Virus record (IMG/VR): IMGVR_UViG_3300021963_000087
Coordinates: 1-64,000 of that record
Origin: a virus
Taxonomy: Duplodnaviria > Heunggongvirae > Uroviricota > Caudoviricetes
Reading direction: 5' to 3' (one strand)
Length of the DNA: 64,000 nt
The notes below the pieces were generated by a model, which had not been told where the DNA came from, did not search any database, and saw nothing but the letters and a program-made list of their open reading frames with translations. Positions 19,850-54,162 of this stretch are shown here, in pieces. The stretch's first letter is position 1. Every line of letters begins with the position of its first letter. Made by a program: the position numbers and the translations under genes.

Positions 19850-19851
19850 AA

Positions 19852-35165: not shown

Positions 35166-36596
35166 ATGAAAGAAGGTTACATTCCACAGGCAGATAGAAA
35201 GAAGATTCTATTACTCTGCGATGATATTAGATTTACATCTGGTATCTCAACAATGGCTAAAGAGATTGTCATTGGTACATCACATCGTTTTAATTGGGTA
35301 AACTTAGGAGCAGCTATCACTCATCCTGATCAAGGTAAGAGATTTGATGTTTGCCAAGATACAAACCAAATAGCAGGTATTACCGATTCATCGGTATTCA
35401 TTATACCTACCTCAGGTTATGGTAATCCAGACTTGCTACGTCAAGTAATTGAAATGGAGAAGCCTGATGCATTAATGTTCTTTACCGATCCGAGATATTG
35501 GATTTGGTTATTCCAAATGGAGAACGAGATTAGAAAGAAGATCCCAATGATTTATTTAAACATTTGGGATGACTTACCAGCACCTTTATACAATGAACCA
35601 TACTACGAGTCTTGTGACACATTGTTAGCTATTTCAAAGCAAACTGCTAACATTAATAGATTGGTACTTGGAGATAAGGCTAAGGATAAGATTATTAAGT
35701 ATGTACCTCATGGTATTAACGAGAAAGTATTCTTCCCATTACCTAAAGACACACCTGAGATACAAGCAATGAGAAAGTTATACTTCGGAGATGATCAACC
35801 TGAGTTTGTTTTATTCTACAATGCTAGAAACATTAGACGTAAGTGTACTTCAGATCTTATCTTAGCGTATGCTCAGTTCTGTGATAAGATTGGTAAAGAG
35901 AAAGCTAAAAAATGTGCTTTGCTTTTACATACTCAAAGAGCAGATGAGAATGGTACTGACTTACCAGCTGTTATAGATTTATTCTGTGACCCTGAGTATC
36001 AAAGAGTTGTATTCTCTGAGTACAGATATTCTCCACATCAAATGAATCATTTATACAACTGTGCAGATGCTGTTACTTTAGTTTCTTCTAATGAAGGCTG
36101 GGGCTTATCTTTGACAGAAGGTATGATGACTGGTAAGATGATTATTGGAAACGTAACAGGAGGTATGCAGGATCAAATGAGATTTGAAGATGAGAATGGT
36201 AAGTGGATTGATTTTGATGAGAAGTTCTGTAGCAATCACTTTGGTACTTACAAAAAGCATGGAGAGTGGGCAGTACCTGTGTATCCTTCTAATTTGTCAA
36301 TTGTTGGTTCTATTCCTACTCCATACATTTTTGATGACAGAGCAGACTTTAGAGATATTGCAAAAGCAATTGAGGAAGTTTATAACTTAGGTCCTGAAGA
36401 AAGAGAAAGAAGAGGTTTGAAAGGAAGAGAGTGGGCTACTTCAGAAGAGTCAATGCAAAGTGCTAGTTCAATGTCTAAGAATATTATTGATGGTGTTGAA
36501 GAAACATTTGCTAAGTGGAAGCCGAGAAAGAAACATCAACTTATCAAAGTGAAGAAGCTACCACGTAAAAAGGCAGCACACTCGTTGGTATATTAA
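35166..36596 (+). CDS. glycosyltransferase, GT4-like (GT-B fold)
   Basis: SSNEGWGLSLTEGMMTGKMIIG (E-x7-E motif). Confidence 0.65.
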   Translation: MKEGYIPQADRKKILLLCDDIRFTSGISTMAKEIVIGTSHRFNWVNLGAAITHPDQGKRFDVCQDTNQIAGITDSSVFIIPTSGYGNPDLLRQVIEMEKPDALMFFTDPRYWIWLFQMENEIRKKIPMIYLNIWDDLPAPLYNEPYYESCDTLLAISKQTANINRLVLGDKAKDKIIKYVPHGINEKVFFPLPKDTPEIQAMRKLYFGDDQPEFVLFYNARNIRRKCTSDLILAYAQFCDKIGKEKAKKCALLLHTQRADENGTDLPAVIDLFCDPEYQRVVFSEYRYSPHQMNHLYNCADAVTLVSSNEGWGLSLTEGMMTGKMIIGNVTGGMQDQMRFEDENGKWIDFDEKFCSNHFGTYKKHGEWAVPVYPSNLSIVGSIPTPYIFDDRADFRDIAKAIEEVYNLGPEERERRGLKGREWATSEESMQSASSMSKNIIDGVEETFAKWKPRKKHQLIKVKKLPRKKAAHSLVY

Positions 36597-36620
36597 TAAA
36601 TAAAGTTTATATTTTAAAAC

Positions 36621-37895
36621 ATGAAACAATACTGCGTTATATCAGCACCTCCAGACACATATAGTGGTTATGGTGCAAGATCAAGAGATTTTATAAAAGC
36701 TATCTATGAGCTTAAAAAGGATGAGTGGGATATTCAAATCATACCGCAGAGATGGGGTAACACTTCTTGGGGTTTCTTAGAAGATAATAAAGAGGAGTGG
36801 GGTTGGATGATTCCATTATTGTTGAAGAGTCCTATGACAAGACAACCTGATGTATGGTTTCAAATCACAGTACCTAGTGAGTTCCAACCAGTGGGTAAGA
36901 TTAATATAGGAGTTACAGCAGGTATTGAAACTACAGTATGTGATTCTAGTTGGATCGAAGGTTGTAATAGAATGAATGCAATATTTGTATCATCCGTACA
37001 TGCTAGAACAGTATTACAAACTACAGCCTTTACTAAGAAGGATGATCCTAACTTTCAAATCAAATTAACTAAGCCTGTTGAAGTTCTATTCGAAGGAGTA
37101 GATCTAAACAAGTACTTCCATATTCCAGATGATGAGTTACCTGAAACAGATCTAGTATTAGACTTAGATGAGATTGAAGAAGACTTTTGTTTTCTATATG
37201 TAGGACACTGGTTGCAAGGAGACTTAGGAGAGGATAGAAAGAACACAGGTAAGCTAGTTCAGGTTTTCTTAGAAACCTTTAAAGGAAAGAAAAAGAAACC
37301 TGCTTTAATTATGAAGACTTCTAGTGCAACATCTTGTATTATGGATAGAGATGAAATGCTTAGAAAGATTAACATTCTTAAAGAAGCTGTGGGTGGTGAT
37401 ATACCAAACATTTACTTACTACATGGTGATATGGATGATGAAGATATGAACTGTCTCTATAACCATCCTAAAGTAAAAGCCTTTGTATCATTTACAAAAG
37501 GTGAAGGATATGGAAGACCTTTAGCAGAGTTCTGCTTATCCAAGAAGCCAATGATAACTACAGCATGGTCAGGTCATATAGATTTCTTAAGTAAAGAGTT
37601 CAGTGTACTATTACCAGGAAAGCTTACAGAGACTCATCCATCAGCTCATTCTAATACTTTAATACTTCCAGGTGCATCTTGGTTTACAGTAGACTACGGA
37701 GCAGCAACAAAAGCATTGGAAGATGTTTATAGTAACTATAAGAAGTATGAAGAGATGGGTAAGCGTCAAGGACATAAGATCAAGACTGAGTTTAGCTACG
37801 ACAACATGGTATTATTCTTATCAGCTTATTTAGCTAAGTATGTTCCTAAGCAAGTAGAATTAAAATTACCTCAACTAAAGAAAATATCTATATAA
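36621..37895 (+). CDS. glycosyltransferase (GT-B fold, GT4-like)
   Basis: SFTKGEGYGRPLAEFCLSKKPMITT. Confidence 0.5.
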   Translation: MKQYCVISAPPDTYSGYGARSRDFIKAIYELKKDEWDIQIIPQRWGNTSWGFLEDNKEEWGWMIPLLLKSPMTRQPDVWFQITVPSEFQPVGKINIGVTAGIETTVCDSSWIEGCNRMNAIFVSSVHARTVLQTTAFTKKDDPNFQIKLTKPVEVLFEGVDLNKYFHIPDDELPETDLVLDLDEIEEDFCFLYVGHWLQGDLGEDRKNTGKLVQVFLETFKGKKKKPALIMKTSSATSCIMDRDEMLRKINILKEAVGGDIPNIYLLHGDMDDEDMNCLYNHPKVKAFVSFTKGEGYGRPLAEFCLSKKPMITTAWSGHIDFLSKEFSVLLPGKLTETHPSAHSNTLILPGASWFTVDYGAATKALEDVYSNYKKYEEMGKRQGHKIKTEFSYDNMVLFLSAYLAKYVPKQVELKLPQLKKISI

Positions 37896-38320
37896 TGACT
37901 AGTCAAGAATTTGTAATATGGTTAAAAGGATTCACTGAAGGTGTGCATGATTTTAACGTTACACCTAAGCAGTGGGATATAATGAAAGATAGATTAGCAG
38001 AAGTATCAGACGATAAGTTTGCAGAAACACCAGGTATGTTTCAAGATCACACTGTACAATCTTATCCTCCGTATTGGAGTCCACATAGTCCCTTTTACAC
38101 AACAAGTGGTACTAGTGGCTCAATAGATACAAGGAGTATAGTTTCTCAATGGACAACAACTCCAAACAACATTACCTACACAGTAACCTCAGGCTCTTCC
38201 TATATTGGAGCAGGCAGCACTTATACTCATACTTATCCTAACGGAACTACTGTGAGCTATACAGCAGGTGGAACAGATGATAATTGGAATATAAAAAATA
38301 AAGACTTACTACATGATTAA
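37895..38320 (+). CDS. hypothetical protein (Thr/Ser/Tyr-rich C-terminus)
   Basis: ORF in array. Confidence 0.35.
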   Translation: MTSQEFVIWLKGFTEGVHDFNVTPKQWDIMKDRLAEVSDDKFAETPGMFQDHTVQSYPPYWSPHSPFYTTSGTSGSIDTRSIVSQWTTTPNNITYTVTSGSSYIGAGSTYTHTYPNGTTVSYTAGGTDDNWNIKNKDLLHD

Positions 38321-38750
38321 AGATGAAATGATAATATGCCCTAAGTGTGGCTGTGATGGATGTTATAAGACTCCAATCAACGAAACCTTATCAAACTACT
38401 TCTGTTGGGGATGTGGTTATCAAACTAATGACTTAATGAAAGAAGGAGAGTTTGACTTTGAAAAGTTTGAAGAAGTATTGCCTGAACTATATAAAGATGT
38501 TAGATATACTGATGCTGAGAATAGAGTTTGGTATCCTGCTGTAGTTAATATAGAAGATAAAGGAACTGTGTTCTTGAATGGGAAGAGTGTTGACGAAGTT
38601 CAATGGGCAGGTATTAAAGTAATTAAATTAACAGACGAAGAAAAAGAACAACCTAAGTTTAAAGGTAAAGAGTATAAGTCAGATGCTAAATCTCTAAAAG
38701 AGTTTGGTAATGACTTTATTGAAGCCTGTGACTATATTGGAGTATTTTAA
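38313..38750 (+). CDS. zinc-ribbon protein
   Basis: CPKCGCDGC...CWGCG. Confidence 0.4.
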   Translation: MIKDEMIICPKCGCDGCYKTPINETLSNYFCWGCGYQTNDLMKEGEFDFEKFEEVLPELYKDVRYTDAENRVWYPAVVNIEDKGTVFLNGKSVDEVQWAGIKVIKLTDEEKEQPKFKGKEYKSDAKSLKEFGNDFIEACDYIGVF

Positions 38751-38753
38751 ACT

Positions 38754-39602
38754 ATGAATGCATTAGTAACAGGTGGTTGTGGCTTTATAGGTTATGCCTT
38801 ATCTAAAGAATTACTTCTGAGAGGTTGTAGTGTTGATGTTATAGATAACTTGTTTATAGGTAATGAAGCTAAGTTAGCAGAAGGAATAAATTTTTTAGGT
38901 GGTGATGTTAGAGCAATGGATAACATACCAAATAAACCATATGATTACATATTTCATTTAGCAGCATTAAGTAGAATACAACCATCGTTCAAAAACCCAG
39001 AGCTAACATTCAATCACAATGTAGATGGTACAAAGCAAGTTACAAAGTATGCATACCAAACCAAGTCTAAATTAATATACGCAGGCTCATCATCTCGACA
39101 TCACAATCCAGAAATATCACCTTACGCTGTGAGTAAGCATATGGGAGAAGAGTGGATAAAGATGTATAAAAATGTGTATGGATTAAATGCAGAGATAGTT
39201 AGATTCTATAATGTATACGGACCAGGTGAGTTAGTAGATTCTCATATGGCAGCTGTTATTGGTAAATGGAGAGCTCAAGCTAAAAAGAATTATCCAATTA
39301 CAATTATAGGTGACGGAAAGCAAAGAAGAGATTTTACTCACATAGACGACATTGTAGATGGTTTGATAAGAGTTGCCGAAAGTGATAAAGGACATGAGGA
39401 TGCATGGGAATTGGGTACAGGTAAAAACTATTCTATAAATGAGGTAGCCGATATGTTTAGAAAAAGGCTTGGTTGTGTGAAAGTTTATATGACTGACCAG
39501 AAAGGAAATTATAGAGAGACGTTGAGAATTAACAGTGATGCTGTTAATATATTAGGATGGCAACCAAAAGATAGATTAGAAGATTATATAAAAAGCTTAT
39601 GA
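38754..39602 (+). CDS. NAD-dependent sugar epimerase/dehydratase (SDR family)
   Basis: VTGGCGFIGYAL Rossmann motif and Y-x3-K (YAVSK). Confidence 0.75.
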   Translation: MNALVTGGCGFIGYALSKELLLRGCSVDVIDNLFIGNEAKLAEGINFLGGDVRAMDNIPNKPYDYIFHLAALSRIQPSFKNPELTFNHNVDGTKQVTKYAYQTKSKLIYAGSSSRHHNPEISPYAVSKHMGEEWIKMYKNVYGLNAEIVRFYNVYGPGELVDSHMAAVIGKWRAQAKKNYPITIIGDGKQRRDFTHIDDIVDGLIRVAESDKGHEDAWELGTGKNYSINEVADMFRKRLGCVKVYMTDQKGNYRETLRINSDAVNILGWQPKDRLEDYIKSL

Positions 39603-40216
39603 AAATTAGTTACGCAATTCCTGTCTGTAATGAAGACGAAGAGTTAGATAGATTACTAACTCAACTTATAGAACATAAACGTCACCAAGACGAAATCGTA
39701 GTACAGTGTGATGAAGGTAATACAACTTCTAAAGTTTATGCAGTATTAGATAAACACGATAAGTATATTAAAGTTGTACAATTTCCTCTCAAAGGGGACT
39801 TTGCATCTTTTAAGAACAACTTAAAGAAGAACTGTACTGGAGAATGGATCTTTCAAATAGATGCTGATGAGTATCTCGATGTAAGATTTTTAAAGCAAGT
39901 ACATGAAATTCTACAACAAAACCCTACAGTAGATCTATTCTTAGTTCCTAGAATCAATAAAGTAGAAGGTCTTACTGATGAACATGTTAAGAGATGGGGA
40001 TGGAGAGTAGATGATCATGGCTATGTAAACTTCCCAGACTACCAAACTAGAATACTACAAAACTCTCCTAAGATTAATTGGGTAAGCAAAGTACATGAAG
40101 TATTAACAGGACACAGCAACTACACAATGTTACCAGCTCAGGAAGAATATTGTTTAGTACATATTAAAAATATCGCACGTCAAGAAAGACAAAATAACTT
40201 TTATAATACATTATAA
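39599..40216 (+). CDS. glycosyltransferase family 2-like (small)
   Basis: SYAIPVCNEDEELDRLL and a DAD motif region. Confidence 0.45.
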   Translation: MKISYAIPVCNEDEELDRLLTQLIEHKRHQDEIVVQCDEGNTTSKVYAVLDKHDKYIKVVQFPLKGDFASFKNNLKKNCTGEWIFQIDADEYLDVRFLKQVHEILQQNPTVDLFLVPRINKVEGLTDEHVKRWGWRVDDHGYVNFPDYQTRILQNSPKINWVSKVHEVLTGHSNYTMLPAQEEYCLVHIKNIARQERQNNFYNTL

Positions 40217-41196
40217 TGAATAAGGTTGCATTAATAACAGGAATCAATGGACAAGATGGATCTTACTTAGCAGAATATTTGCTAGAGTTAGGATACCATG
40301 TTCACGGCATACTAAAACGTAATTCAGTAGCAGAGAATCAAACAGCTAGACTAGACAAAGTGTTTGGTCTTATTCACTTCCACTATGCTGATATGACAGA
40401 TCTTTCATCCTTGTACAGAGTAATAAACAAAGTACAGCCTGATGAGATCTATAACTTAGCTGCACAATCACACGTACGTATTTCTTTCGATCAACCAATC
40501 TATACAGCCAACACTACAGGGTTAGGAGTACTTAACTTATTAGAAGCTGTAAGAGAAATCAATCCTAGGATCAAAATATATCAAGCATCTTCTTCAGAGA
40601 TGTTTGGTAACTCTGTTGATCCAGATGGCTTCCAAAGAGAAACTACCCCAATGCATCCAGTATCTCCTTACGGATGTGCAAAAGTGTTTGGGTATAACAT
40701 TGCTAGGAACTATAGAAACTCCTATGGAATGTTTATCTCAAATGGTATCTTATTCAATCATGAATCAATTAGAAGAGGTACAAACTTCGTAACTAATAAA
40801 GTTGCTAAGGAAGTAGCTAAGATTAAACATGGTTACTCTGAGGAATTGTTGTTAGGTAACTTAGATGCTTCAAGAGATTGGGGTCATGCTAAAGACTTTG
40901 TTAAAGCAATGCACTTAATTCTACAACTAGATCAGCCAGATGACTTTGTTTGTGCTACAGGAATATCTCATACGGTAAGAGATTTATGTGATTATGCTTT
41001 CACCGAACTAGATTTAGATTATAAAAAGTATGTACATTTACACGAAAAATTTTTAAGACCAGAAGAACTCAACTTTCTAAAAGGAGATCCATCTAAGCTA
41101 ATGGCTATGACAGGATGGAAGCCTGAGTATACTTTTGAAAGTATGATAACAGAAATGGTTGAGTATTGGGATCGTTTATATAGAAAAGTATATTAA
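40216..41196 (+). CDS. gmd: GDP-mannose 4,6-dehydratase
   Basis: KVALITGINGQDGSYLAEYLLELGYHVHGI...YNLAAQSHV...YQASSSEMFG, near-colinear with E. coli Gmd. Confidence 0.93.
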   Translation: MNKVALITGINGQDGSYLAEYLLELGYHVHGILKRNSVAENQTARLDKVFGLIHFHYADMTDLSSLYRVINKVQPDEIYNLAAQSHVRISFDQPIYTANTTGLGVLNLLEAVREINPRIKIYQASSSEMFGNSVDPDGFQRETTPMHPVSPYGCAKVFGYNIARNYRNSYGMFISNGILFNHESIRRGTNFVTNKVAKEVAKIKHGYSEELLLGNLDASRDWGHAKDFVKAMHLILQLDQPDDFVCATGISHTVRDLCDYAFTELDLDYKKYVHLHEKFLRPEELNFLKGDPSKLMAMTGWKPEYTFESMITEMVEYWDRLYRKVY

Positions 41197-41197
41197 T

Positions 41198-44260: not shown

Positions 44261-44261
44261 T

Positions 44262-46857: not shown

Positions 46858-47812
46858 GGTAGTTTACATAACAGGTTGTTTAGGTTTCATAGGTTCCTAT
46901 GTTACTAGAGCTTGTTTACACAAAGGATGGTATGTAAAAGGGGTAGATAAGATAACATACGCATCCAATAAGAACTTGTTAGAGGATTTCAATTCCTATG
47001 AGAAGTTTTCTTTTATTAAGTCAGACATAAATGATTTAAAGTTTTTGTATGAATGTGATTATGTAATTAACACAGCAGCAGAAACTCACGTAGGTAACTC
47101 AATAGCTAACAGTGATGAGTTTGTACATTCCAATATTGATGGAGTACATAACCTATTAGAGTTAATAAAGAACTACAGACAAGAGTCTTCCAAGAAACCA
47201 ATCTTCCTACACTTCAGTACAGATGAAGTATACGGAGATATTAACGAAGGAGCTCATACAGAAACAGATTTACTCAAGCCTTCTAATCCATATTCAGCTA
47301 CTAAAGCAGCAGCGGATATGTTAGTACTTGCTTGGGCTAGAACTTATAACCTACCCTATGTAATAGTTAGACCTACTAACAATTATGGTATTGGTCAGTA
47401 TGTAGAGAAGTTAATTCCAAAAGCTTGTAAGTACTTAAGTTTGGGAAAAAGGATTCCTTTACACAATAATGGTACCCCTATTAGAAACTGGTTACATGCT
47501 GATGACACAGCTAGAGCTGTTGTTCAGATTATTGAGTCAGGAGTAGAGAATGAGATCTATAACATAGCAGGTGGATTTGAGCAATCAAACTACGACACTG
47601 TTAAAAAGGTAATTGAAACGTATAGAGGGATTGAAATTCTAGACTTTAATATGAAGAACTATCTTGACTTAACATATTCTAGAGCAGGTCAAGATGTTAG
47701 ATATGCTTTAGATGATTCTAAGTTAAGAGGATTAGGTTGGGAACCAAAAGTAGTATTTGACGAACAATTGGAAGAAATTATAAATTATTACAAACATAAA
47801 TTTATCTGGTAA
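46847..47812 (+). CDS. NDP-sugar 4,6-dehydratase (RmlB-like)
   Basis: ITGCLGFIGS, GVDKITYASNKNLL and HFSTDEVYGD match RmlB. Confidence 0.85.
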   Translation: MSTKVVYITGCLGFIGSYVTRACLHKGWYVKGVDKITYASNKNLLEDFNSYEKFSFIKSDINDLKFLYECDYVINTAAETHVGNSIANSDEFVHSNIDGVHNLLELIKNYRQESSKKPIFLHFSTDEVYGDINEGAHTETDLLKPSNPYSATKAAADMLVLAWARTYNLPYVIVRPTNNYGIGQYVEKLIPKACKYLSLGKRIPLHNNGTPIRNWLHADDTARAVVQIIESGVENEIYNIAGGFEQSNYDTVKKVIETYRGIEILDFNMKNYLDLTYSRAGQDVRYALDDSKLRGLGWEPKVVFDEQLEEIINYYKHKFIW

Positions 47813-48507
47813 TGGGATTATTTAGAATACAACATTGTGATTTTGAAGAGAAGTTCACTTCTAAGGATTTTGATACAGCTCATACCAATGAGTGGGAAGA
47901 TGCTGGAAGACTTCAAGAAGAAGCTTGGCAGAAGAGATATGAGTATGAAGCTAATATTGTTAGTGTAGTTATTCAAGAAAATCCTCACATTAAAAACGTA
48001 TTAGAGATTGGTAGTGGTCCAGGAGTATTATCTCAAAAGATATTAGAGATGCACCCAGACTTAAACTATCATTTAGTAGATAAGCCATTTGCTAAGAAGT
48101 ACTTTGATGAGAATAAGTTTAAAGGAACTTTCTTTGTTAAGGATCTTTCTAGTAGTTTTGATACCCACGAACTCTTACCTAAGTATGATTTAGTAATAGC
48201 TAATGACTTTATTGAGCACGTATTTAATCCTCATATTATTGTTAGCACTATACACAGATTAACAAATCCAGATTCAGTATTCTTTATTAGTAATCCTAAT
48301 TGGAGAATGGCTCATCAATATGTCTACAGAGGTTTGTTTGACTTTGATAATTTTGTATATTTCTTATACACACACGCATTTCAATTAGAAGGCTTTTATG
48401 GATCACAATTAAAGACTCCTGCCTATCCAAGAATTAGTAGCGAGACTTTACTACCAGATGAGAACTTAACGGATTGGAATCACTATATGATATTTAAACA
48501 CAGATAA
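47812..48507 (+). CDS. class I SAM-dependent methyltransferase
   Basis: VLEIGSGPGVLS motif I. Confidence 0.6.
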   Translation: MGLFRIQHCDFEEKFTSKDFDTAHTNEWEDAGRLQEEAWQKRYEYEANIVSVVIQENPHIKNVLEIGSGPGVLSQKILEMHPDLNYHLVDKPFAKKYFDENKFKGTFFVKDLSSSFDTHELLPKYDLVIANDFIEHVFNPHIIVSTIHRLTNPDSVFFISNPNWRMAHQYVYRGLFDFDNFVYFLYTHAFQLEGFYGSQLKTPAYPRISSETLLPDENLTDWNHYMIFKHR

Positions 48508-49130
48508 TGAAAGAATTAAGAAAACGACTAGTCGAAATAGCTTATAAGAATAAGCTAGGACACTTGGGAAGTTATTTCTCAAGCTTAGAAATTATAGATG
48601 AAATCTATTCCAGAATGGAAAAAGATGACATCTTCATTCTATCTTCAGGACATGCTGCATTAGCTTTGTACGTATGCTTAGAAAAGTATAAAGGAGTAAA
48701 TGCTGATATGCTATTTGAAAAGCATGGTGGACATCCTCACAGAGATGAGGAGAACTTTATACATTGCTCTACAGGTTCATTAGGTTTAGGTATATGTGTA
48801 GCTTTAGGTAGAGCTGTAGCTAATCCTAAGAGGGAAGTTTACGTACTAATTAGTGATGGTGAGTGTGCAGAAGGAAGTATATGGGAAGCTCTCAAAACTA
48901 TTTACGAGGAAGGTATTAGTAACATAACAGTTTATGTTAATGTGAATGGATACGCAGCTTATAAAGAAGTTGAGAAACAATACTTAGTAGATAGATTAGA
49001 ATCATTCCTACCTTCTATCAACATCAGATACACAAGCGTAGAACAGTTTCCTTTCTTAAAAGGATTGAATGCTCACTACCACGTAATGAATGAAGAAAAT
49101 TATCAAGAAGCTTTAAATATATTATCATGA
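48507..49130 (+). CDS. transketolase N-terminal (ThDP-binding) subunit
   Basis: GHLGSYFSSLEI...SSGHAALALY. Confidence 0.75.
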   Translation: MKELRKRLVEIAYKNKLGHLGSYFSSLEIIDEIYSRMEKDDIFILSSGHAALALYVCLEKYKGVNADMLFEKHGGHPHRDEENFIHCSTGSLGLGICVALGRAVANPKREVYVLISDGECAEGSIWEALKTIYEEGISNITVYVNVNGYAAYKEVEKQYLVDRLESFLPSINIRYTSVEQFPFLKGLNAHYHVMNEENYQEALNILS

Positions 49131-49603
49131 GAAGAGACTTTGCGGAATTACTTTTCCAAGAGATGGCTGTTAACGAAGACATCTTTCTTGTCACAGGAGA
49201 CCTAGGATACGGTTTGTGGGATAAGATTAGAGACACCTACCCAGATAGATTCTACAATGTAGGATCTTCTGAGATGGCTATGATGGGAATGGGTATAGGA
49301 TTAGCTATGGAAGGAAAGATTCCATATGTATATTCTATTACACCTTTTGCTATCTATAGACCTTTCGAGATGATTCGTAACTATTTGGATCATGAAAAGA
49401 TTCCAGTAAACATTATTGGTGGGGGTAGAAATAAAGACTACGGCTACTTAGGCTTTTCACATTGGTCAGAAGATGATGGTGAAATTATGTTAGCATTCGA
49501 TGATGTTGTATGCCATTGGCCAGACAGTGAAGATGATTTAAAAAAAGCATTTGAGTACAGCTTAATAAAAGAAAAAGCAACTTACATAAACTTAAAGCGA
49601 TGA
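49127..49603 (+). CDS. transketolase C-terminal (pyrimidine-binding) subunit
   Basis: Translationally coupled to the N-terminal subunit; GDLGYGLWD...GMGIGLAMEG. Confidence 0.65.
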   Translation: MRRDFAELLFQEMAVNEDIFLVTGDLGYGLWDKIRDTYPDRFYNVGSSEMAMMGMGIGLAMEGKIPYVYSITPFAIYRPFEMIRNYLDHEKIPVNIIGGGRNKDYGYLGFSHWSEDDGEIMLAFDDVVCHWPDSEDDLKKAFEYSLIKEKATYINLKR

Positions 49604-50385
49604 GAATATTAATCACAGGAGCTAACGGATACATAGGTAAAACTTTACACAATGCTCTAAGAGATATACACTACGTAACAGCTATTACTAGAAAAGAAGT
49701 AGAGTTGGCTGATGCTGCTGCTGTAGATAAGTTTTTTAAAAATTCACATTTTTTTGATGTGGTTATACACTGTGCTACAGCAGGTGCTGTTAGTCCGAGG
49801 AGTGAAGATTGGAACATAATGGATAACAATCTTAAAATGTATTATAATTTACTACAGAACAAGAGACGTTACGATAGGCTAATTCATTTTGGATCAGGTG
49901 CTGAAACTTATTTGCCAAGTACACCTTATGGTTATAGTAAGAAAGTTATTGCTAAGTCTATCTTAAACCAAGATAACTTCTACAATCTTAAGATCTTTGG
50001 AGTGTTTGATGAGAATGAATTAGATACTAGATTTATAAAAGCTAACATCCTACGTTATATTAAGAAAGAGCCAATACAAATTCACGAAAATAAGTATATG
50101 GACTTCTTCTACATGCAAGATTTAATCTCAGTAGTAAAGTATTACATTGGAGAAAAGGAACCACCTAAAGAGTTTGACTGTGTTTATGAAGAAGGGTCTC
50201 CTACTCTTACACAGTTATCTACTATGATAAACGACTTAGACGGTCATAAGGTTAAAATATTTGTTGGAAATCCAGACGGTGATTCATACACATCTAAGTA
50301 TCGTAGTCAATTACCCTATGGGTTTATAGGATTAGAGCAAGGAATCAAAAACGTATACAACAAACTTAAGAATGAAACAAATTAG
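49600..50385 (+). CDS. NAD(P)-dependent sugar reductase/epimerase (SDR)
   Basis: ILITGANGYIGKTL Rossmann motif and YGYSK. Confidence 0.6.
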   Translation: MRILITGANGYIGKTLHNALRDIHYVTAITRKEVELADAAAVDKFFKNSHFFDVVIHCATAGAVSPRSEDWNIMDNNLKMYYNLLQNKRRYDRLIHFGSGAETYLPSTPYGYSKKVIAKSILNQDNFYNLKIFGVFDENELDTRFIKANILRYIKKEPIQIHENKYMDFFYMQDLISVVKYYIGEKEPPKEFDCVYEEGSPTLTQLSTMINDLDGHKVKIFVGNPDGDSYTSKYRSQLPYGFIGLEQGIKNVYNKLKNETN

Positions 50386-51661
50386 CTTTTTAATTAACAC
50401 ATCCAATAATACTTTAGATTACGTTAAGTTATTACTCAAGTCTCTAAAAGAGAACCTAGCAGGTAAAGAGCATGAGATATTAATCTTTGTGGATTCAGAT
50501 AACGAGGGTACAGTTAATTATTTAAAAGAACAGAAGAAAGACTTCTTTGATCTTAAAATAATAACTCACAACTTAACTCCTTGTGTAGGATATTCTAGAA
50601 ACAACAACCTACTTGTTGAATTGGCTAAGCATCCTATTGTAAGCTATTTACAAAGTGATATGGTTATTAGTCCTAATTACGACTTGGATGTTCTTAGTGA
50701 ACTAGAAGAGAATTGTATATTAAGTGCAACTAGAATAGAACCTCCTTTACATGGAATGTCAGATAGAACTATTACAAAAGACTTTGGAACAGATCCAAAT
50801 GATTTTAAATGGGATGAGTTTCAAAAGTTCTCAATAGAAGCTAAGACTGACAGACAAATAGATTACTTCTTTGCACCATTTACTTTCTATAAGAATGTTT
50901 GGTTAGAAGTAGGTGGGTACGATACTTTGTTTAGAAGATCAAGAGAAGACTCAGACTTGCTTCAAAGATTTATCCAGAAAGGAGTGAAGATCAAACAAAC
51001 CTTTAAAGCAAACGTATACCATTTTAGTTGTGTAAGCTCGAGAGGAAAGAATTGGTTTGATCCTAACAGCAAAGAAGCTCAGACTAGAGTACAGATTCAA
51101 CAATATGCAGACAAAGTTGAGTTAGTTAGATTTACTAGAAAGTGGGGAAGGTTTAATCACGGAGAGCAAAAGCTAATTAGATATGATATGGATTTGCTAT
51201 GGAGAGGTGGAACTATTCAAGAACTTACTTCAATAGAACCTTACTTCACTAAGACCTGGTTACCTGGAAACCAAATCAAAGAACAACTTGAAATGTACTA
51301 TAGAACTGAACATGCATTTGCAAACCAACTTCTAAAGTTTTCAGATCTAGATTGGCAAGTAGCTAAAAAGTTCTATAACCAAGTCGACTACAGTTCTATA
51401 CACCAAATCGGTGATCCAACAGATTATAATATTTTAGTAACTGTTAGTATTCCTAGAGATGAGAAAGGAGCACTTACAGAAGAAGCATCCTTGTTCTTAC
51501 AGAATTTGGCATTTTTAAGCGATATAATCGAACAAAACGAGCCAGGGACGTATCAATTAGGGACTGCTACGATCCACATAAAAAACAAGGTTAATTTAGC
51601 AAATAACCACATTGTAGTAGAAAACCCTCCTTTTGACTACTCCCTGTTAACAATCGAATAG
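50372..51661 (+). CDS. glycosyltransferase family 2-like
   Basis: N-terminal ISFLINTSNN...VDSDNEG. Weak. Confidence 0.4.
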   Translation: MKQISFLINTSNNTLDYVKLLLKSLKENLAGKEHEILIFVDSDNEGTVNYLKEQKKDFFDLKIITHNLTPCVGYSRNNNLLVELAKHPIVSYLQSDMVISPNYDLDVLSELEENCILSATRIEPPLHGMSDRTITKDFGTDPNDFKWDEFQKFSIEAKTDRQIDYFFAPFTFYKNVWLEVGGYDTLFRRSREDSDLLQRFIQKGVKIKQTFKANVYHFSCVSSRGKNWFDPNSKEAQTRVQIQQYADKVELVRFTRKWGRFNHGEQKLIRYDMDLLWRGGTIQELTSIEPYFTKTWLPGNQIKEQLEMYYRTEHAFANQLLKFSDLDWQVAKKFYNQVDYSSIHQIGDPTDYNILVTVSIPRDEKGALTEEASLFLQNLAFLSDIIEQNEPGTYQLGTATIHIKNKVNLANNHIVVENPPFDYSLLTIE

Positions 51662-51673
51662 ATATTTATATAC

Positions 51674-52438
51674 ATGCGTAGTATAATAGAATTATTAGAA
51701 GCTGATGGTGTGGTTCCTGACACAAAGTTCAAGAAGCAGATTGAGAAAGCTACAAAGTATTTAGACACCAAGAAGAAAGTATTATTTCTAACTACTTCAA
51801 ACAGAAGCGCTTATCACGTAAATGAGCTTGGGGAAGAACCTAAATCAACTAGGATTGCTCGCAAGATGCAAGAAGCTTTAGGTGCTCACAAGTGTACTTT
51901 GGTTGAGATTCCCAAGCTTAAGATCTATAACTGTGAAGGAAATGTTTCTGCTAAGGATGGTAATAACTGTGGAGTTAGAGCTGCGAAGTTAAAAGATCCA
52001 GAAAAGAATCCCACAGGTCAACTTAGATGTTGGGCTTCATATAACAATGAGGATGATGAGCTTTGGAAAGTAGTTACACCTTTATTGGAATCAGATGCAG
52101 TAGTATTCTTTGGTTCAGTTAGATGGGGACAAGCTAATGCTTACTACCAAAAGTTGATTGAGAGATTAGATTGGATTGAGAATAGATGGACTACTTTGGG
52201 TGAGAGAAATATTATAGAAGGGATTGAGTCTGGATTTATATTCATTGGACAGAACTGGAATGGAAGTAATGTGGTTAAGTTACAGAAGCAAGTGCATGAG
52301 TTCTATGGATTTAAACCAGCAGATGAACTATACTTCAATTGGCAATATACAGAAGATGTTGAAGATGAATCTAAAGACAGTTACAAAGACGCAGCTACAG
52401 CGTTAGATAACATTTTTGACATTAGAGACTTATTATGA
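51674..52438 (+). CDS. hypothetical protein
   Basis: ORF in array. Confidence 0.4.
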   Translation: MRSIIELLEADGVVPDTKFKKQIEKATKYLDTKKKVLFLTTSNRSAYHVNELGEEPKSTRIARKMQEALGAHKCTLVEIPKLKIYNCEGNVSAKDGNNCGVRAAKLKDPEKNPTGQLRCWASYNNEDDELWKVVTPLLESDAVVFFGSVRWGQANAYYQKLIERLDWIENRWTTLGERNIIEGIESGFIFIGQNWNGSNVVKLQKQVHEFYGFKPADELYFNWQYTEDVEDESKDSYKDAATALDNIFDIRDLL

Positions 52439-53073
52439 TTACATTAACAGCTAATCAATTTTACAATAACAAAACTTGGCATATTCCTTTAGAGTACGAT
52501 GTACCAGTTCCTATCCAACATCCAGAATGGATTAACATATTTGATCAAAATGGATATAGACTTACAAAGCTAGAATCCTACTATGCAGGAGCTAACAACC
52601 ATGCATTTGTAAGACATGGACATGAAATGTGTCTAAGACAAGATTGGTTTACAGAAGAAAAAATATTAACAGGTCCGCATCTAAACCATGCTTTCTTATT
52701 TGAGAGAAAAGGATATAGTGAAGAAGCTTTACACCAACTAAAAGATTTTGCAAAGCAGAATAACTTAGTAAATAAGCTCGTAAACTATAAAGGTAAATGG
52801 GGAGTTGACTTTAGTATGGACTATGTGGATGACAAGGGAAACTCAATGGAACTCCTTCATTTTGAATATGATAGCTATAGCCTAAGTGAGATTAAAGAGA
52901 TTAAAGAGATAGTAGAAGAGAAGGTAAGTATTGTAGATTGGGATTGGGCAGCACAAATTATAATGGAGAAGAAGTATGAATGGATTGAGCTAGACTTTTT
53001 TGAACAGTCTAAATGGAAAACAGATTACTTTGGCCTTCCAGCAGAGAGATTTAAAATGCTGGCTTGGGATTAA
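52435..53073 (+). CDS. hypothetical protein
   Basis: ORF in array. Confidence 0.4.
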   Translation: MITLTANQFYNNKTWHIPLEYDVPVPIQHPEWINIFDQNGYRLTKLESYYAGANNHAFVRHGHEMCLRQDWFTEEKILTGPHLNHAFLFERKGYSEEALHQLKDFAKQNNLVNKLVNYKGKWGVDFSMDYVDDKGNSMELLHFEYDSYSLSEIKEIKEIVEEKVSIVDWDWAAQIIMEKKYEWIELDFFEQSKWKTDYFGLPAERFKMLAWD

Positions 53074-53678: not shown

Positions 53679-53691
53679 ACTATTTATTAGT

Positions 53692-54162
53692 ATGATAAAC
53701 TTAGAAAACCTATTAAACGAAGCCTTACCAGCCCTTATTCCAGAATATCCTGTGAACATTGCTGGCCATTCCTTAAAGCTTAGATTTGACGTAAATGTAA
53801 ACAAAACTAAGAAAGGCATTAAGTTGCAGTTTGTATTGGATCAAGTACCAACAGATCCAAGAGAGCTACAGAACTTAGCTAATGAGATTGGTGCTGACTT
53901 ACAAGAGAAGTTTGGAGCTGCAAACCTACAAGTTATATATGATGTAGAAAATCCATATAAGAATGTTGTAGGATTCTTACTTCCACTTCCTTCAGTAGCA
54001 AACTTTATCATGACTACAGTATTACAAGGTGAAGATACTAAACCAGAAGTACCTGGACCAGAAGGAGAAGAAGCTCCTGAAACAGAACAGCTACCTGCAC
54101 AAGAGGAGCCACCAGCAGAAGAGCCTATCAGAGAGAGAATGAAACGTATTGCTGGAATTTAA
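53692..54162 (+). CDS. hypothetical protein (acidic Pro/Glu-rich C-terminus)
   Basis: ORF in array. Confidence 0.4.
   Translation: MINLENLLNEALPALIPEYPVNIAGHSLKLRFDVNVNKTKKGIKLQFVLDQVPTDPRELQNLANEIGADLQEKFGAANLQVIYDVENPYKNVVGFLLPLPSVANFIMTTVLQGEDTKPEVPGPEGEEAPETEQLPAQEEPPAEEPIRERMKRIAGI

Follow-up and report, generated by a model that had tools for sequence, protein, structure and literature searches.

A phage-borne glycan biosynthesis and transfer locus with a conserved core and a swappable rare-sugar cassette

Virus-encoded multi-enzyme glycan clusters that have been experimentally resolved, namely those of Megavirinae and chloroviruses, serve virion glycosylation (PMC10117803, PMC9614988), and mycobacteriophages provide a further precedent, given in summary form in PMC12619734. 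Polymorphic clusters with multiple glycosyltransferases (GTs) have also been published for cyanomyoviruses and jumbo phages, a record overlooked by the initial annotation of the present locus, which set it well apart from the single glucosyltransferases usual in phages; comparable polymorphic clusters are already known in cyanophages and giant viruses. The new result here is that the locus consists of a conserved core followed by a freely swapped rare-sugar cassette.

Locus organization and phage origin

The locus lies in the window, the whole 64,000-nt stretch of Caudoviricetes DNA analysed (IMGVR_UViG_3300021963_000087). ORF calls reproduce the boundaries first proposed: 20 + strand ORFs span 35166-53073, mostly overlapping their neighbours by 1-14 nt, with gaps of at most 24 nt inside the array and a 44-nt gap 3' of it. 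Significant Pfam matches place nucleotide-sugar or GT-family domains in 13 of the 20 ORFs in a single block, which is far beyond chance, and the Pfam and NCBIfam assignments establish a genuine phage-borne glycan biosynthesis and transfer locus with rare deoxy-sugar chemistry. The families first assigned mostly hold, while the small ORFs at 37895-38320 and 38313-38750 had been missed. In all, eight GT domains are encoded.

Host DNA or an assembly junction, the refuting condition named at the outset, is ruled out: GC content is uniform (0.33-0.37), phage genes continue on both sides, synteny with Flavobacterium phage immuto extends over both flanks, and the framework recurs in at least 597 viral contigs and in 45 independent long ones (relatives; individual loci carry L numbers below). 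The source phage is an aquatic relative of immuto, and an identical GT-A gene occurs in 4 ENA/other contigs. Two flanking regions lie outside the pathway:

34028..34897, + strand: PD-(D/E)XK exonuclease, left flank (phrog_69 exonuclease, 2e-22)
53118..55579, + strand: HNH endonuclease, three conserved small phage ORFs and a second HNH endonuclease, right flank (PHROG HNH matches)

The exonuclease is conserved beside GT-A in 37/45 relatives and also adjoins it in Microcystis phage Mel-JY01 and a 484-kb uncultured phage. On the right, p53692, p54177, p54517 and HNH2 come after the island in immuto and in all relatives whose right end is visible.

The conserved core

The core comprises GT-A, GT-B, the zinc-ribbon protein s145 and the small GT2 (sGT2), with the terminal GT2 (tGT2) as a looser member. 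These genes, and the interposed s141, are as follows:

35166..36596, + strand: GT-A, GT4-type retaining glycosyltransferase, 476 aa, basic C-terminal tail (Pfam Glycos_transf_1 34.3 bits, above cut-off; phrog_2170)
36621..37895, + strand: GT-B, second core GT4-like transferase, 424 aa (phrog_2170 5e-13; EX7E at E295-E303)
37895..38320, + strand: s141, optional small protein (phrog_28500, N-terminus only)
38313..38750, + strand: s145, core zinc-ribbon protein (4 invariant Cys) with an alpha/beta domain
39599..40216, + strand: sGT2, small soluble core GT2, 205 aa (Pfam Glycos_transf_2 1.6e-10)
50372..51661, + strand: tGT2, terminal GT2, 429 aa, semi-conserved right-hand transferase (Pfam Glycos_transf_2 2.3e-8; EpsD-like 1.2e-11)

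GT-A carries the EX7E motif E310-E318, shares 61% amino acid identity with its immuto counterpart, and occurs in 45/45 relatives and at least 597 viral contigs, as well as in Mel-JY01, Rhodothermus phage RM378 and the 484-kb phage. Its best PDB match is chlorovirus NY-2A B736L (3.9e-8). The initial call of two GT4-like ORFs is borne out by Pfam for GT-A; GT-B has no Pfam match and owes its assignment to phrog_2170, its EX7E motif and a weak profile match to B736L (1.6e-3). GT-B, likewise present in 45/45 relatives and 44% identical to a neighbouring gene in Mel-JY01, has an invariant GEGxGRPxxE and a C-terminal tail of LPxLKK repeats.

Both s145 and sGT2 occur in 44/45 relatives. The alpha/beta domain of s145 matched no known fold, and its fold gave no clue to role. 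The characterised proteins closest to sGT2, all by weak similarity, are GmaR, the O-GlcNAc transferase of Listeria flagellin (GT domain, 6.3e-8), SunS/ThuS-type peptide S-glycosyltransferases and TarP/TarS. tGT2 is 30% identical to immuto gp102, 64% to its L089 homologue and 26% to that of Mel-JY01, and this Microcystis phage repeats the core set of nuclease, GT-A, GT-B, sGT2 and tGT2. Resemblance to B736L, GmaR and SunS is weak and mostly confined to regions that bind the donor.

In s141, the first 40 aa are conserved and the tail, rich in Ser/Thr/Asn/Gly/Tyr, is hypervariable. The protein was considered as a general acceptor and rejected because the gene is optional: it occurs in 22/45 relatives (71-163 aa) and is missing from immuto.

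The swappable cassette

Cassette architecture differs almost from locus to locus (43 distinct among 46), and its content is uncoupled from GT-A identity, with a mean Jaccard index of 0.17 at 85-95% identity; the nearest relative, L012, has no cassette gene in common with the window. All sampled cassette families are glycan-related. The window's cassette and right edge contain:

38754..39602, + strand: SDR epimerase/dehydratase-family enzyme, 282 aa (Pfam Epimerase 1.2e-43; under all NCBIfam equivalog cut-offs)
40216..41196, + strand: GDP-mannose 4,6-dehydratase, GMD (Pfam GDP_Man_Dehyd 2e-117; TIGR01472 395.8 bits, cut-off 415)
41159..42094, + strand: Fcl-like SDR, GDP-4-keto-6-deoxymannose epimerase/reductase type, fucose or colitose synthase (NF047922 GDP-L-fucose synthase 1.1e-45)
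42084..43424, + strand: E1/RfbH-type PMP- and [2Fe-2S]-dependent NDP-4-keto-6-deoxyhexose 3-dehydrase, DegT-family (NF011936 RfbH 446.3 bits, cut-off 423)
43424..44260, + strand: GT11, alpha-1,2-fucosyl/colitosyl-transferase family (Pfam Glyco_transf_11 1.7e-27, 96.9 bits)
44262..45251, + strand: u329, GT-B-fold glycosyltransferase candidate, 329 aa (weak GT4 profile match)
45241..46857, + strand: fusion of GT2 (N-terminal) and fucosyltransferase-type GT10 (C-terminal), 538 aa (Glycos_transf_2 3.2e-17 at 7-146; Glyco_transf_10 4.8e-10 at 386-500)
46847..47812, + strand: RmlB-like NDP-glucose 4,6-dehydratase (TIGR01181 1.5e-91, 306.8 bits, cut-off 365)
47812..48507, + strand: class I SAM-dependent methyltransferase (Pfam Methyltransf_23/12/31)
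48507..49130, + strand: mini split transketolase-like ThDP enzyme, PP-domain subunit, 207 aa (Pfam DXP_synthase_N, Transketolase_N, TPP_enzyme_C)
49127..49603, + strand: the same enzyme, Pyr-domain subunit, 158 aa (Pfam Transket_pyr 1.6e-13)
49600..50385, + strand: SDR reductase, RmlD-like N-terminus (Pfam Epimerase 2.7e-19, RmlD_sub_bind 2.3e-10)
51674..52438, + strand: flavodoxin-like (WrbA/NQO/SsuE-fold) protein, 254 aa, right-edge, subclade-conserved (Foldseek prob 1.0 to FMN reductases; AF2 pLDDT 70.7)
52435..53073, + strand: u212, right-edge, subclade-conserved

Pfam agrees with the families first given for the SDR epimerase, small GT2, GMD, GT11 and GT2-GT10 fusion, and Pfam/NCBIfam with those of the RmlB-like dehydratase, methyltransferase, further SDR and GT2-like ORF. 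The 282-aa SDR, 41% identical to the immuto WcaG-like gp101, is probably of the NDP-sugar 4-epimerase type. GMD lies within 10 kb in 17/45 relatives, and the trio of GMD, Fcl-like SDR and E1 recurs in L003, L008, L024, L031 and L033; the Fcl-like SDR scores 156 bits with NF047922, far under the equivalog cut-off of 500.

The dehydratase previously labelled ColD-like is instead an E1/RfbH-type enzyme, since it passes the curated RfbH cut-off, matches E1 (3bcx) at 3e-100 vs 2.6e-49 for ColD, and retains the active-site His H220 and the [2Fe-2S] cysteines C193/C251/C253/C267, all four of which are kept in 22/24 family members. Nor does u329 stay an unknown ORF: it matched nothing in Pfam, PHROG or NCBIfam, and a 16-sequence profile weakly matches the C-terminal domain of the GT4 enzyme BshA (3.3e-3), suggesting that it is probably a GT-B-fold transferase; it also weakly matches an immuto 'mannosyltransferase' and occurs in 17/45 relatives. 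The GT2-GT10 fusion is shared with L033, L035 and L070.

The RmlB-like enzyme (just 77 bits with the CDP-type model) has 75-79% identity in L089 and L095, and the methyltransferase, which may act in sugar O- or C-methylation, 75% at the same position in L089. Pfam domains uphold the split transketolase. Its PP subunit has an invariant GDG...N.N ThDP motif and 3620 homologues, ~207 aa in all 120 among the matches listed; the Pyr subunit, which has no transketolase C-terminal domain, always follows it in L078, L089, L095 and L097. The RmlD-like SDR, a probable ketoreductase of a branched or keto sugar, is linked to this pair in L078, L089 and L095, and in L095 the E1, RmlB-like, both transketolase and SDR genes are contiguous. 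ThDP enzymes that branch keto-sugars, proposed split transketolases among them, are documented (PMC12247030).

One of the two terminal ORFs first listed as unknown is flavodoxin-like: its Pfam search was empty, and its 2332 homologues include proteins named 'multimeric flavodoxin WrbA' by JGI. It has invariant cysteines C74, C87, C99 and C119 and occurs also in relatives without E1; it is a candidate, unproven component of the glycan pathway. The other, u212, indeed has no match in Pfam, PHROG, NCBIfam or PDB, and is 60-68% identical in L087, L088, L090, L091 and L093, immediately 3' of the flavodoxin-like gene.

Glycan assembly and the acceptor

The resemblance to an O-antigen or capsule cluster noted initially is superficial. 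No initiating phosphoglycosyltransferase, flippase (Wzx), polymerase (Wzy), ABC transporter or ligase is encoded either in the window locus or among the 544 island ORFs of the 45 relatives; TM-like segments are absent from all 20 proteins of the window locus, and none of the relatives' ORFs is polytopic. A self-sufficient O-antigen or capsule cluster is therefore rejected. Glycan hypermodification of DNA bases, also suggested earlier, is disfavoured by LC-UV-MS of immuto, a cultured relative with the same conserved core, whose nucleosides were only dA, dC, dT and fdPreQ1 (PMC10516641).

Remodelling of host envelope glycans is the main rival and, though doubtful, a serious one. GT2, GT4, GT10 and GT11 enzymes acting on undecaprenyl-linked acceptors are likewise soluble or peripheral, so the missing TM segments are compatible with a lipid-linked acceptor; GT-A and GT-B could be anchored to the membrane by their basic C-terminal tails, and core conservation across host phyla could also stem from a lipid-linked primer that is itself widely conserved. 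Moreover, the island belongs to the arm devoted to replication and nucleotide metabolism; in immuto, the first structural genes begin ~22 kb downstream of it. This position, unlike that of mycobacteriophage GTs, counts against a virion acceptor.

The tentatively preferred reading, at somewhat short of even probability, is that the phage autonomously glycosylates, in the cytoplasm, an acceptor that it specifies itself, probably a virion protein; the tight co-directional packing favours this reading. Enzyme families, catalytic motifs, the modular build, the lack of membrane or export components and the phage origin are observed, and from them the exact sugars, the transfer order and the acceptor are inferred. 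The island would be phage-autonomous, wholly cytoplasmic and made up of two modules. The core module would build an invariant inner glycan on a lineage-conserved acceptor, most likely at least one virion protein, and the cassette would make and attach strain-specific outer sugars. Because the locus has no nucleotidyltransferase, the window's cassette would be fed by host GDP-mannose and NDP-glucose. GMD and the Fcl-like SDR may yield GDP-L-fucose; if the E1-type Fe-S 3-dehydrase joins this route, the product would be a 3,6-dideoxyhexose resembling colitose. The RmlB-like enzyme, possibly E1 again, the split mini-transketolase, the SDR ketoreductase and the methyltransferase may yield a C-branched and/or methylated (di)deoxyhexose, by a branching logic like that of yersiniose or miharamycin-type sugars. 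GT11, the GT2-GT10 fusion, u329 and tGT2 would attach the cassette sugars, and the eight GT domains suggest a glycan of ~7-8 or more residues.

The likeness of GT-A to a chlorovirus GT, and of sGT2 to the protein and peptide glycosyltransferases GmaR and SunS/ThuS, offers weak hints in favour of a virion-protein acceptor, and the viral precedents cited above also speak for it, as does the pathway linkage in L095 for the proposed sugar route. Since the core recurs in a Microcystis phage, and GT-A in the Rhodothermus and 484-kb phages, a phage-specified acceptor is a simpler explanation of core conservation across host phyla than host-specific glycans.

Gene content of the island and its place in a phage genome

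The glycan island is a compact array of 20 open reading frames (ORFs), all on the + strand, which fill window positions 35166-53073 (ORF boundaries). Gaps within the array do not exceed 24 nt, most neighbours overlap by 1-14 nt, and a 44-nt gap follows the array. The island ORFs discussed individually are the following.

35166-36596, + strand: GT-A, a GT4-like glycosyltransferase (GT)
36621-37895, + strand: GT-B, a second GT4-like protein
37895-38320, + strand: s141, a small protein with a Ser/Thr-rich tail
38313-38750, + strand: s145, a zinc-ribbon protein
39599-40216, + strand: sGT2, a small GT2
41159-42094, + strand: Fcl-like SDR
42084-43424, + strand: E1, an RfbH-type Fe-S 3-dehydrase
44262-45251, + strand: u329, a 329-aa protein
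46847-47812, + strand: RmlB-like 4,6-dehydratase
50372-51661, + strand: tGT2, the terminal GT2
51674-52438, + strand: flavodoxin-like protein
52435-53073, + strand: u212, the last ORF of the array

Pfam and NCBIfam searches bore out almost the whole gene list of the initial annotation, with matches to GT4, an SDR epimerase, a small GT2, GMD (Pfam 2e-117), an Fcl-like SDR, a DegT-family protein, GT11, a GT2-GT10 fusion, an RmlB-like 4,6-dehydratase, a class I SAM methyltransferase, a transketolase (TK)-like pair, a further SDR and a 429-aa GT2. Altogether, the island contains eight GT domains of at least four families. The TK-like pair constitutes a two-gene ThDP enzyme with a 207-aa PP domain and a 158-aa Pyr domain, without the TK C-terminal domain. 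That list had left out two small ORFs, 37895-38320 and 38313-38750. Its assignment of GT-B as GT4-like is supported by a phrog_2170 match, a weak match to chlorovirus B736L and an EX7E motif, although a Pfam match is lacking. Two of its unknowns can now be described further: u329 gives a weak GT4 C-terminal profile signal, and the 254-aa ORF near the end of the array is a flavodoxin-like protein. Searches of PDB, PHROG and NCBIfam returned no match at all for u212 and no useful match for tGT2, and the fold of s145 is not recognisable.

The upstream genes encode a 5'-3' exonuclease, DnaB, RNR, QueD, FolE, a DpdA-like protein, DNA polymerase A, GroES/EL, a tmRNA, four tRNAs and a PD-(D/E)XK exonuclease, and the island is followed downstream by HNH endonucleases and small phage ORFs. 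Features of these flanks are listed by window position.

4551-5024: QueD (7-deazaguanine gene)
8213-9172: SPFH/Band 7 family protein
10321-11433: GTP cyclohydrolase I (7-deazaguanine gene)
13593-14402: DpdA-like ORF (7-deazaguanine gene)
19559-21516: GroES/GroEL pair (GroEL phrog_5725, 4e-149)
22576-24687: 703-aa ORF with a cohesin domain (Pfam 1.5e-6)
29606-30298: homing-endonuclease-like ORF, NUMOD3
30860-31247, + strand: tmRNA
32238-32839, + strand: tRNA-Met, tRNA-Leu, tRNA-Ser and tRNA-Gln
53118-53678: homing-endonuclease-like ORF, HNH
54917-55579: homing-endonuclease-like ORF, HNH

The tmRNA scores 75.3 bits against Rfam RF00023 (gathering score 47) and has the ARAGORN tag peptide ANEYAVAA*; a local GC bump at 32-34 kb is due to the tmRNA and tRNA genes. 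The early region of a cultured relative, described below, also contains an annotated cohesin-domain protein as well as a C-type-lectin-domain protein, and such proteins may be carbohydrate- or protein-binding accessory proteins. The homing-endonuclease-like ORFs stand on both sides of the island and could promote cassette exchange.

Among 50,697 phage records, the sole nucleotide-level relative of the window is Flavobacterium phage vB_FspM_immuto (Immutovirus, 160 kb; hereafter immuto), whose glycan island occupies the same position between the same flanking genes. A relative of GT-A is encoded by at least 597 IMG/VR contigs. These relationships bear on the concern that the island might be host (Flavobacterium) O-antigen DNA fused to phage DNA through misassembly or at a prophage junction. 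Its gene content resembles that of bacterial polysaccharide loci, and a GC content of about 0.35 would suit Flavobacterium too. However, GC (0.33-0.37) and skew are flat over the window, all genes lie on the single coding strand of the phage, and genes syntenic with immuto are present on both sides of the island. Moreover, the island stands at the same position in the cultured, complete immuto genome, its framework is common to 45 long viral contigs, and independent ENA assemblies hold an identical GT-A with identical neighbours. An origin as host DNA or misassembly, to which only a negligible probability can be assigned, is therefore already refuted and is rejected here: as the initial annotation had remarked, phage neighbours continue on both sides, and synteny and recurrence identify the island as phage DNA.

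A conserved core and an exchangeable cassette

Comparison was made with 45 related loci, each with at least 8 kb downstream of GT-A and followed to 10 kb downstream, in which ORFs were called naively and proteins were clustered at ≥30% identity and ≥60% coverage. These loci share a framework consisting of a nuclease, a small ORF, GT-A, GT-B, an optional s141, s145, sGT2, a variable cassette, usually a terminal GT2, and conserved phage ORFs. GT-A and GT-B are present in 45/45 loci, and s145 and sGT2 in 44/45. By contrast with this stable core, 43 distinct cassette architectures are found among 46 loci (the window counted), figures that are approximate because of the 10-kb limit, the naive ORF calls and the cluster thresholds. 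Cassette content is uncoupled from GT-A divergence, with a mean Jaccard index of 0.17 where GT-A is 85-95% identical. The nearest locus by GT-A (L012, 82%) has no cassette gene in common with the window within 10 kb, whereas a locus with 75% GT-A identity (L003) shares most of the cassette genes. The sampled cassette families are all glycan-related and include GT2, GT10, DUF3431, DUF6492, GT2-DUF5672, FkbM and sugar C-methyltransferases, UDP-glucose dehydrogenase, DegT aminotransferases and SDRs.

Sub-modules of the cassette travel as units. The RmlB-like dehydratase, the methyltransferase, both TK-like proteins, the SDR and tGT2 recur in L089 at 50-77% identity, the TK-like pair and its SDR recur in L078, and E1, the RmlB-like dehydratase, the TK-like pair and the SDR are contiguous in L095. 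Within the window's subclade, the flavodoxin-like gene and u212 lie between the terminal GT2 and the right flank regardless of cassette content.

The core of the island is old. Microcystis phage Mel-JY01 carries the nuclease, GT-A, GT-B, sGT2 and a terminal GT2, and GT-A also occurs in Rhodothermus phage RM378 and in a 484-kb uncultured phage. In four very distant phages, GT-A is linked to a PD-(D/E)XK nuclease within replication modules.

A basic motif, KLP(R/K)KKIxHKLxY, is conserved at the C-terminus of GT-A homologues (window 36540-36596), and GT-B homologues terminate in one to three copies of a basic LPxLKK(I/V)E repeat (window 37830-37895); these may be docking or membrane-binding tails. 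The s141 protein (37895-38320) combines a conserved 40-aa N-terminus with a tail of varying length that is enriched in Ser, Thr, Asn, Gly and Tyr and has NxS/T sequons. Its gene lies within the conserved GT core, occurs in 22/45 relatives and is missing from immuto. The protein could be a candidate glycan carrier or acceptor. As a dedicated acceptor, however, it was set aside: Ser/Thr-rich and located inside the core, it is yet missing from about half of the relatives, including immuto. Its conserved terminal ND/HD results from the 8-nt overlap with the s145 start codon.

The island of immuto likewise begins directly after the PD-(D/E)XK nuclease and has the same right flank. It shares the core at amino acid identities of 61% (GT-A), 51.5% (GT-B), 42% (s145) and 48% (sGT2), and also an SDR (41%) and the terminal GT2 (30%). 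Its cassette of about 11 kb differs, with WecE-type aminotransferases, a PglB-like acetyltransferase, a methyltransferase and a mannosyltransferase, and without GMD, the Fcl-like SDR, E1, GT11, the GT2-GT10 fusion, the RmlB-like dehydratase or the split TK. Beyond GenBank gene-product annotation, nothing was found in the literature on the immuto island.

Polymorphic multi-GT clusters are already known in large lytic phages, as are clade-specific glycosylation clusters in giant viruses. The phage clusters include the 'LPS / cell-wall synthesis and modification' clusters of the cyanomyoviruses P-SSM2, S-SCSM1 and S-SCSM2R with 13 GTs (PMC12801897), and those of jumbo phages that Iyer et al. 2021 (PMC7824862) named 'capsular polysaccharide modification systems'; their role is usually guessed to be host-surface modification (PMC12801897, PMC7824862). 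The island resembles them in its many GT families (including GT2, GT10 and GT11), in its NDP-sugar epimerases and dehydratases, in its occurrence in large lytic myoviruses and in its polymorphism among related phages (PMC12801897, PMC7824862). Several GT families are clustered with NDP-sugar enzymes and vary between close relatives, as in the class delineated for jumbo phages (PMC7824862). It differs in host phylum, in its core of GT-A, GT-B, the zinc-ribbon s145 and sGT2, in its E1-type Fe-S 3-dehydrase and split mini-transketolase, and in a core-plus-cassette organisation quantified over 46 loci. Mel-JY01, the one cyanophage tested directly, shares the island core, while other cyanophage clusters were compared by description.

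We found no earlier description that combines this conserved core of two GT4-like enzymes, a zinc-ribbon protein and a minimal GT2, spanning at least 597 contigs, with a quantified serotype-like cassette turnover and a phage-encoded pairing of an E3-less E1 and a split transketolase-like enzyme of 365 aa. Large glycan clusters have been on record for big lytic phages ever since cyanomyovirus genomes were first described, and their target has never been established in the literature searched. The unusually clean architecture of an invariant core and a hypervariable cassette, in a large family (at least 597 contigs), makes the question testable. Immuto, whose DNA chemistry is already known, is cultured on Flavobacterium sp. 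LMO8, and because this relative and its host exist, the island makes a question that has long been open unusually tractable.

Predicted sugar chemistry of the cassette

The cassette enzyme initially described as ColD-like is of the E1/RfbH type, a class of PMP/[2Fe-2S] 3-dehydrases. It scores 446 bits on NF011936 (curated cut-off 423), matches Yersinia E1 structures (3bcx) at 3e-100 and ColD at 2.6e-49 (339 vs 171 bits), and retains, over 446 aa, the active-site H220 and the [2Fe-2S] ligands C193, C251, C253 and C267, a Cys set of the C-X57-C-X-C-X7-C type. A ColD-type 3-dehydrase (about 390 aa, without an Fe-S cluster) is ruled out by the E1-type scores and the four Cys ligands. Two short homologues in other loci, in L070 (RfbH-like, 382 aa) and L080 (384 aa), keep the active-site His and lack the four Fe-S cysteines; they are thus ColD-like forms in the same protein cluster, so that both mechanistic types circulate in these islands.

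No Fer2, FAD_binding_6 or NAD_binding_1 match, and hence no dedicated E3 reductase with plant-type ferredoxin and FNR-like domains, was detected in the island. The flavodoxin-like protein (51674-52438) has a fold and four invariant Cys that fit an electron carrier, and it could in principle donate electrons to E1. A dedicated partnership with E1 is not supported, however, since the gene is kept at the right edge in the E1-less loci L087, L088, L090, L091 and L093. The protein has 2332 close homologues, all of about 254 aa, and is conserved independently of E1. Its cysteines (C74, C87, C99 and C119) lie in an insertion poorly predicted by AlphaFold, and it may be an iron-sulfur flavoprotein. 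Although equal in length to E3, u329 was dismissed for the E3 role, as it has no ferredoxin or FNR domains, shows the weak GT4 signal and is found without E1.

Two sugar-nucleotide routes can be proposed. In the first, GMD would convert GDP-mannose to GDP-4-keto-6-deoxymannose, from which the Fcl-like SDR would form GDP-L-fucose; after 3-deoxygenation by E1, the same SDR would yield a colitose-like 3,6-dideoxyhexose. GT11 and GT10 are the matching transferase families. GMD scores 395.8 bits on TIGR01472, slightly below the equivalog cut-off of 415. The Fcl-like SDR reaches 156 bits against a GDP-fucose synthase cut-off of 500, with models that do not separate ColC from Fcl. The GMD, Fcl-like and E1 trio recurs in several relatives.

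In the second route, the RmlB-like dehydratase would convert NDP-glucose to NDP-4-keto-6-deoxyglucose, the split TK-like enzyme and the SDR would then perform ThDP-dependent branching at C-4 of the keto-sugar followed by ketoreduction, and an O- or C-methyl group would come from the SAM methyltransferase. The ThDP motif of the split enzyme is intact, and the RmlB-like dehydratase, the methyltransferase, TK-PP, TK-Pyr and the SDR are contiguous in the window, which places the ThDP enzyme beside a 4,6-dehydratase and a ketoreductase. Because E1 directly adjoins the RmlB-like dehydratase in L036, L048, L049 and L095, it may serve this second route or both. The island has no nucleotidyltransferase, so host GDP-mannose and NDP-glucose must be drawn on; a ManC-type enzyme is encoded in one relative.

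The overall scheme resembles the E1/E3, ColD/ColC and YerE/YerF pathways, in which 4,6-dehydration is followed by 3-deoxygenation, ThDP-dependent C-4 branching and ketoreduction. Unlike the E1/E3 pathway, the island has no E3 reductase, and its dehydratase is nearer the dTDP than the CDP type (306.8 bits on the dTDP-type model, 77 on the CDP-type). The glucose-1-phosphate cytidylyltransferase and CDP-glucose 4,6-dehydratase that belong to a CDP-3,6-dideoxyhexose pathway (RfbF-RfbG-RfbH-RfbI) are absent from the island. It differs from the colitose pathway in that its 3-dehydrase is E1-type rather than ColD-type, and from YerE in that its ThDP enzyme is a split (207 + 158 aa) transketolase-like protein rather than one of the acetolactate-synthase type. 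YerE of yersiniose biosynthesis is an established case of such ThDP-dependent branching at C-4 (PMC12247030). For the split TKs of miharamycin and amipurimycin biosynthesis, branching has been proposed and never assayed in vitro (PMC12247030).

The mini-TK has 3620 homologues, of which the closest 120 are 75-99% identical, measure about 207 aa and lie on contigs the longest of which are phage genome-sized. A scan of 185,579 species genomes by peptide patterns, which does not prove rarity, gave one match (46-48% identity). This match (L097) lies at 8001-9208 of CAYMUB010000023.1, a 45.6-kb contig (GC 0.33) from a MAG labelled 'uncultured Gammaproteobacteria', which may be bacterial or a binned phage; the gene adjoins DegT-like and SDR genes.

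Given the eight GT domains, the assembled glycan would comprise some 7-8 or more residues. Whichever acceptor receives it, the cassettes represent a reservoir of compact rare-sugar enzymes, including the E3-less E1 dehydrase, the 365-aa two-piece transketolase-like putative carboligase and the GT2-GT10 fusion.

The acceptor of the glycan

The island resembles an O-antigen or capsule cluster only in part. Nucleotide-sugar genes and several GTs do stand in one operon, and the presence of GMD, the Fcl-like SDR, E1, a 4,6-dehydratase, GT11 and GT10 recalls bacterial O-antigen, capsule and dideoxyhexose loci. Unlike those loci, however, the island has no initiating phosphoglycosyltransferase, Wzx, Wzy, Wzz or ABC transporter. 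Within the island, no Bac_transf or Glycos_transf_4 match points to a WbaP/WecA-type initiating enzyme, and no Pfam match corresponds to Wzx/Wzy, Wzm/Wzt, chain-length or export families. None of its 20 proteins has a transmembrane-like segment, and among 544 island ORFs from the 45 relatives none is polytopic, with a single hydrophobic stretch in five. The lack of any polytopic protein in the window's island and its relatives therefore implies that an initiating phosphoglycosyltransferase, Wzx, Wzy, ligase, Gtr component and ABC permease are all absent.

The virus-encoded GTs and sugar-nucleotide enzymes are soluble and, as in virus-autonomous virion glycosylation, would need no host export machinery. 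Glycosylation of a virion or other phage protein is the explanation we tentatively prefer, at somewhat less than even confidence. A phage-specified, probably virion, acceptor is favoured because phages of three bacterial phyla share one core and because export genes were never co-acquired despite rampant cassette exchange. Faint similarities point the same way: GT-A resembles a chlorovirus GT, and sGT2 resembles the protein/peptide glycosyltransferases GmaR and SunS/ThuS.

Alternatively, the soluble phage GTs may modify undecaprenyl-linked intermediates of the host at the inner membrane face, the targets being O-antigen, capsule or the general O-glycan of Bacteroidota, and host flippase, ligase or oligosaccharyltransferase may export the altered glycan. 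The receptor would thereby be masked or changed, superinfection blocked and progeny kept from adsorbing to infected cells or debris, and cassette diversity would follow that of host surface glycans. This alternative deserves serious weight, though we consider it doubtful. The GT2, GT4, GT10 and GT11 families and deoxy-sugar pathways of the island are those of O-antigen loci, and host remodelling is the published hypothesis for the polymorphic multi-GT clusters of cyanophages and jumbo phages (PMC7824862, PMC12801897). Two annotated tail spike proteins of immuto suggest a polysaccharide receptor, the basic tails of GT-A and GT-B could bind anionic membranes, and the island lies among early/middle-type genes; it belongs to the replication arm, and in immuto some 22 kb separate it from the structural genes. 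Against host remodelling stands the missing membrane machinery. Seroconverting phages normally carry such components, and we know of no experimental case in which a lytic phage rebuilds host O-antigen with about eight GTs. In addition, core GTs are common to phages that infect Flavobacterium, Microcystis and Rhodothermus, hosts with differing surface glycans. The cassettes also seem to be passed around among phages, as judged from the closest 120 of 3620 mini-TK homologues and from the single match in the pattern-limited scan of species genomes. If the glycan were nonetheless placed on the host, a lytic phage would be masking receptors in a novel way.

A product other than the virion or the host surface is improbable. 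It could be a free oligosaccharide, a glycolipid, a glycosylated small molecule or peptide, or a non-structural phage or host protein, for example one whose glycosylation inactivates a defence or redirects metabolism. Such a product would agree with the solubility of every island enzyme, with the peptide S-glycosyltransferases and the regulatory glycosyltransferase GmaR among the nearest characterised relatives of sGT2, and with the Ser/Thr-rich s141 inside the core of roughly half the relatives. Keto-sugar branching by split TKs has so far been tied to secondary metabolites (PMC12247030), and GT-A gives a faint, below-cut-off match (E 0.004) to the Pfam family 'GT4 in conflict systems'. Nevertheless, the island contains no NRPS, PKS, or RiPP precursor with a maturation enzyme, s141 is optional, and strong diversification of outer glycans is more typical of exposed surface structures.

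Precedents also lend support to a virion acceptor. The mycobacteriophages of Freeman et al. 2023 reportedly have few GTs, located beside structural genes, and use host sugar nucleotides; the present island differs in its 20 genes, its own sugar-nucleotide chemistry and its location in the replication arm. In mycobacteriophages, as summarised in PMC12619734, phage GTs glycosylate capsid and tail-tube subunits in the bacterial cytoplasm. Chloroviruses and Megavirinae share with the island GMD and Fcl-type enzymes, rare bacterial-like sugars, methyltransferases and soluble GTs, and the content of giant-virus glycosylation clusters is clade-specific (PMC10117803, PMC9614988). The nearest solved relative of GT-A is B736L of chlorovirus NY-2A, a remote match (3.9e-8 over about 145 residues). 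These viruses differ from the phage in their eukaryotic hosts and in having chemically demonstrated capsid or fibril glycans, the island being known from its genes alone. In these sources, all experimentally resolved virus-encoded multi-enzyme glycan clusters decorate virions (PMC10117803, PMC9614988, PMC12619734), a further reason for favouring a phage-specified acceptor.

A more specific form of virion glycosylation, in which the island would be a phage counterpart of an O-antigen locus, can be proposed, although as a whole it is on balance unlikely. The fixed four-gene inner-core module and the recombining cassette would together specify a strain-specific virion 'serotype' of rare sugars (E1-derived 3,6-dideoxyhexoses and split-transketolase C-branched sugars), made in the cytoplasm without a lipid carrier or export, in globally abundant aquatic Bacteroidota myoviruses (at least 597 viral contigs). 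If true, it would give phages of Gram-negative bacteria their first serotype-like virion glycan system, and a split-TK sugar-branching enzyme its first physiological role outside antibiotic pathways. With the glycan on the virion, phage particles in natural waters would bear strain-specific sugar coats, with consequences for adsorption, grazing, aggregation, immune or lectin recognition and phage typing.

Hypermodification of DNA, in which the GTs would put an oligosaccharide on modified bases of phage DNA and so evade restriction, had also been suggested initially and is now disfavoured. GT-A is persistently linked to a PD-(D/E)XK nuclease in the replication modules of the four very distant phages, diversification would be in keeping with an arms race against type IV restriction, and phage clusters of GTs and epimerases that add 1-3 sugars to 5hmC are documented (bioRxiv 10.1101/2023.12.21.572611). 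However, Cui et al. found by LC-UV-MS/MS that digested DNA of immuto, a relative of the window's phage with the same conserved core, yields dA, dC, dT and one extra peak, fdPreQ1, which replaces all dG, and they reported no glycosylated nucleoside (PMC10516641). The proposal is thus largely refuted for immuto. No dCMP/dUMP hydroxymethylase, TET/JBP dioxygenase or C5-methyltransferase, and thus no hydroxylated-base enzyme of the kind expected near the GTs of T-even-type or 5mYOX/ThyS-linked systems, was seen among the window ORFs scanned, and the best matches of immuto ThyA are true thymidylate synthases. Eight GT domains, together with GT10 and GT11, which act on glycan acceptors, far exceed the 1-3 sugars of documented DNA glycans (bioRxiv 10.1101/2023.12.21.572611), and a DNA acceptor is accordingly regarded as very improbable.

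With respect to the 7-deazaguanine genes of the window itself, QueC, QueE, QueF and DpdN were not seen within the window. The DpdA-like ORF is 24% identical to immuto DpdA3, and the GTP cyclohydrolase I carries a fused N-terminal AAA_18 (kinase-like) domain.
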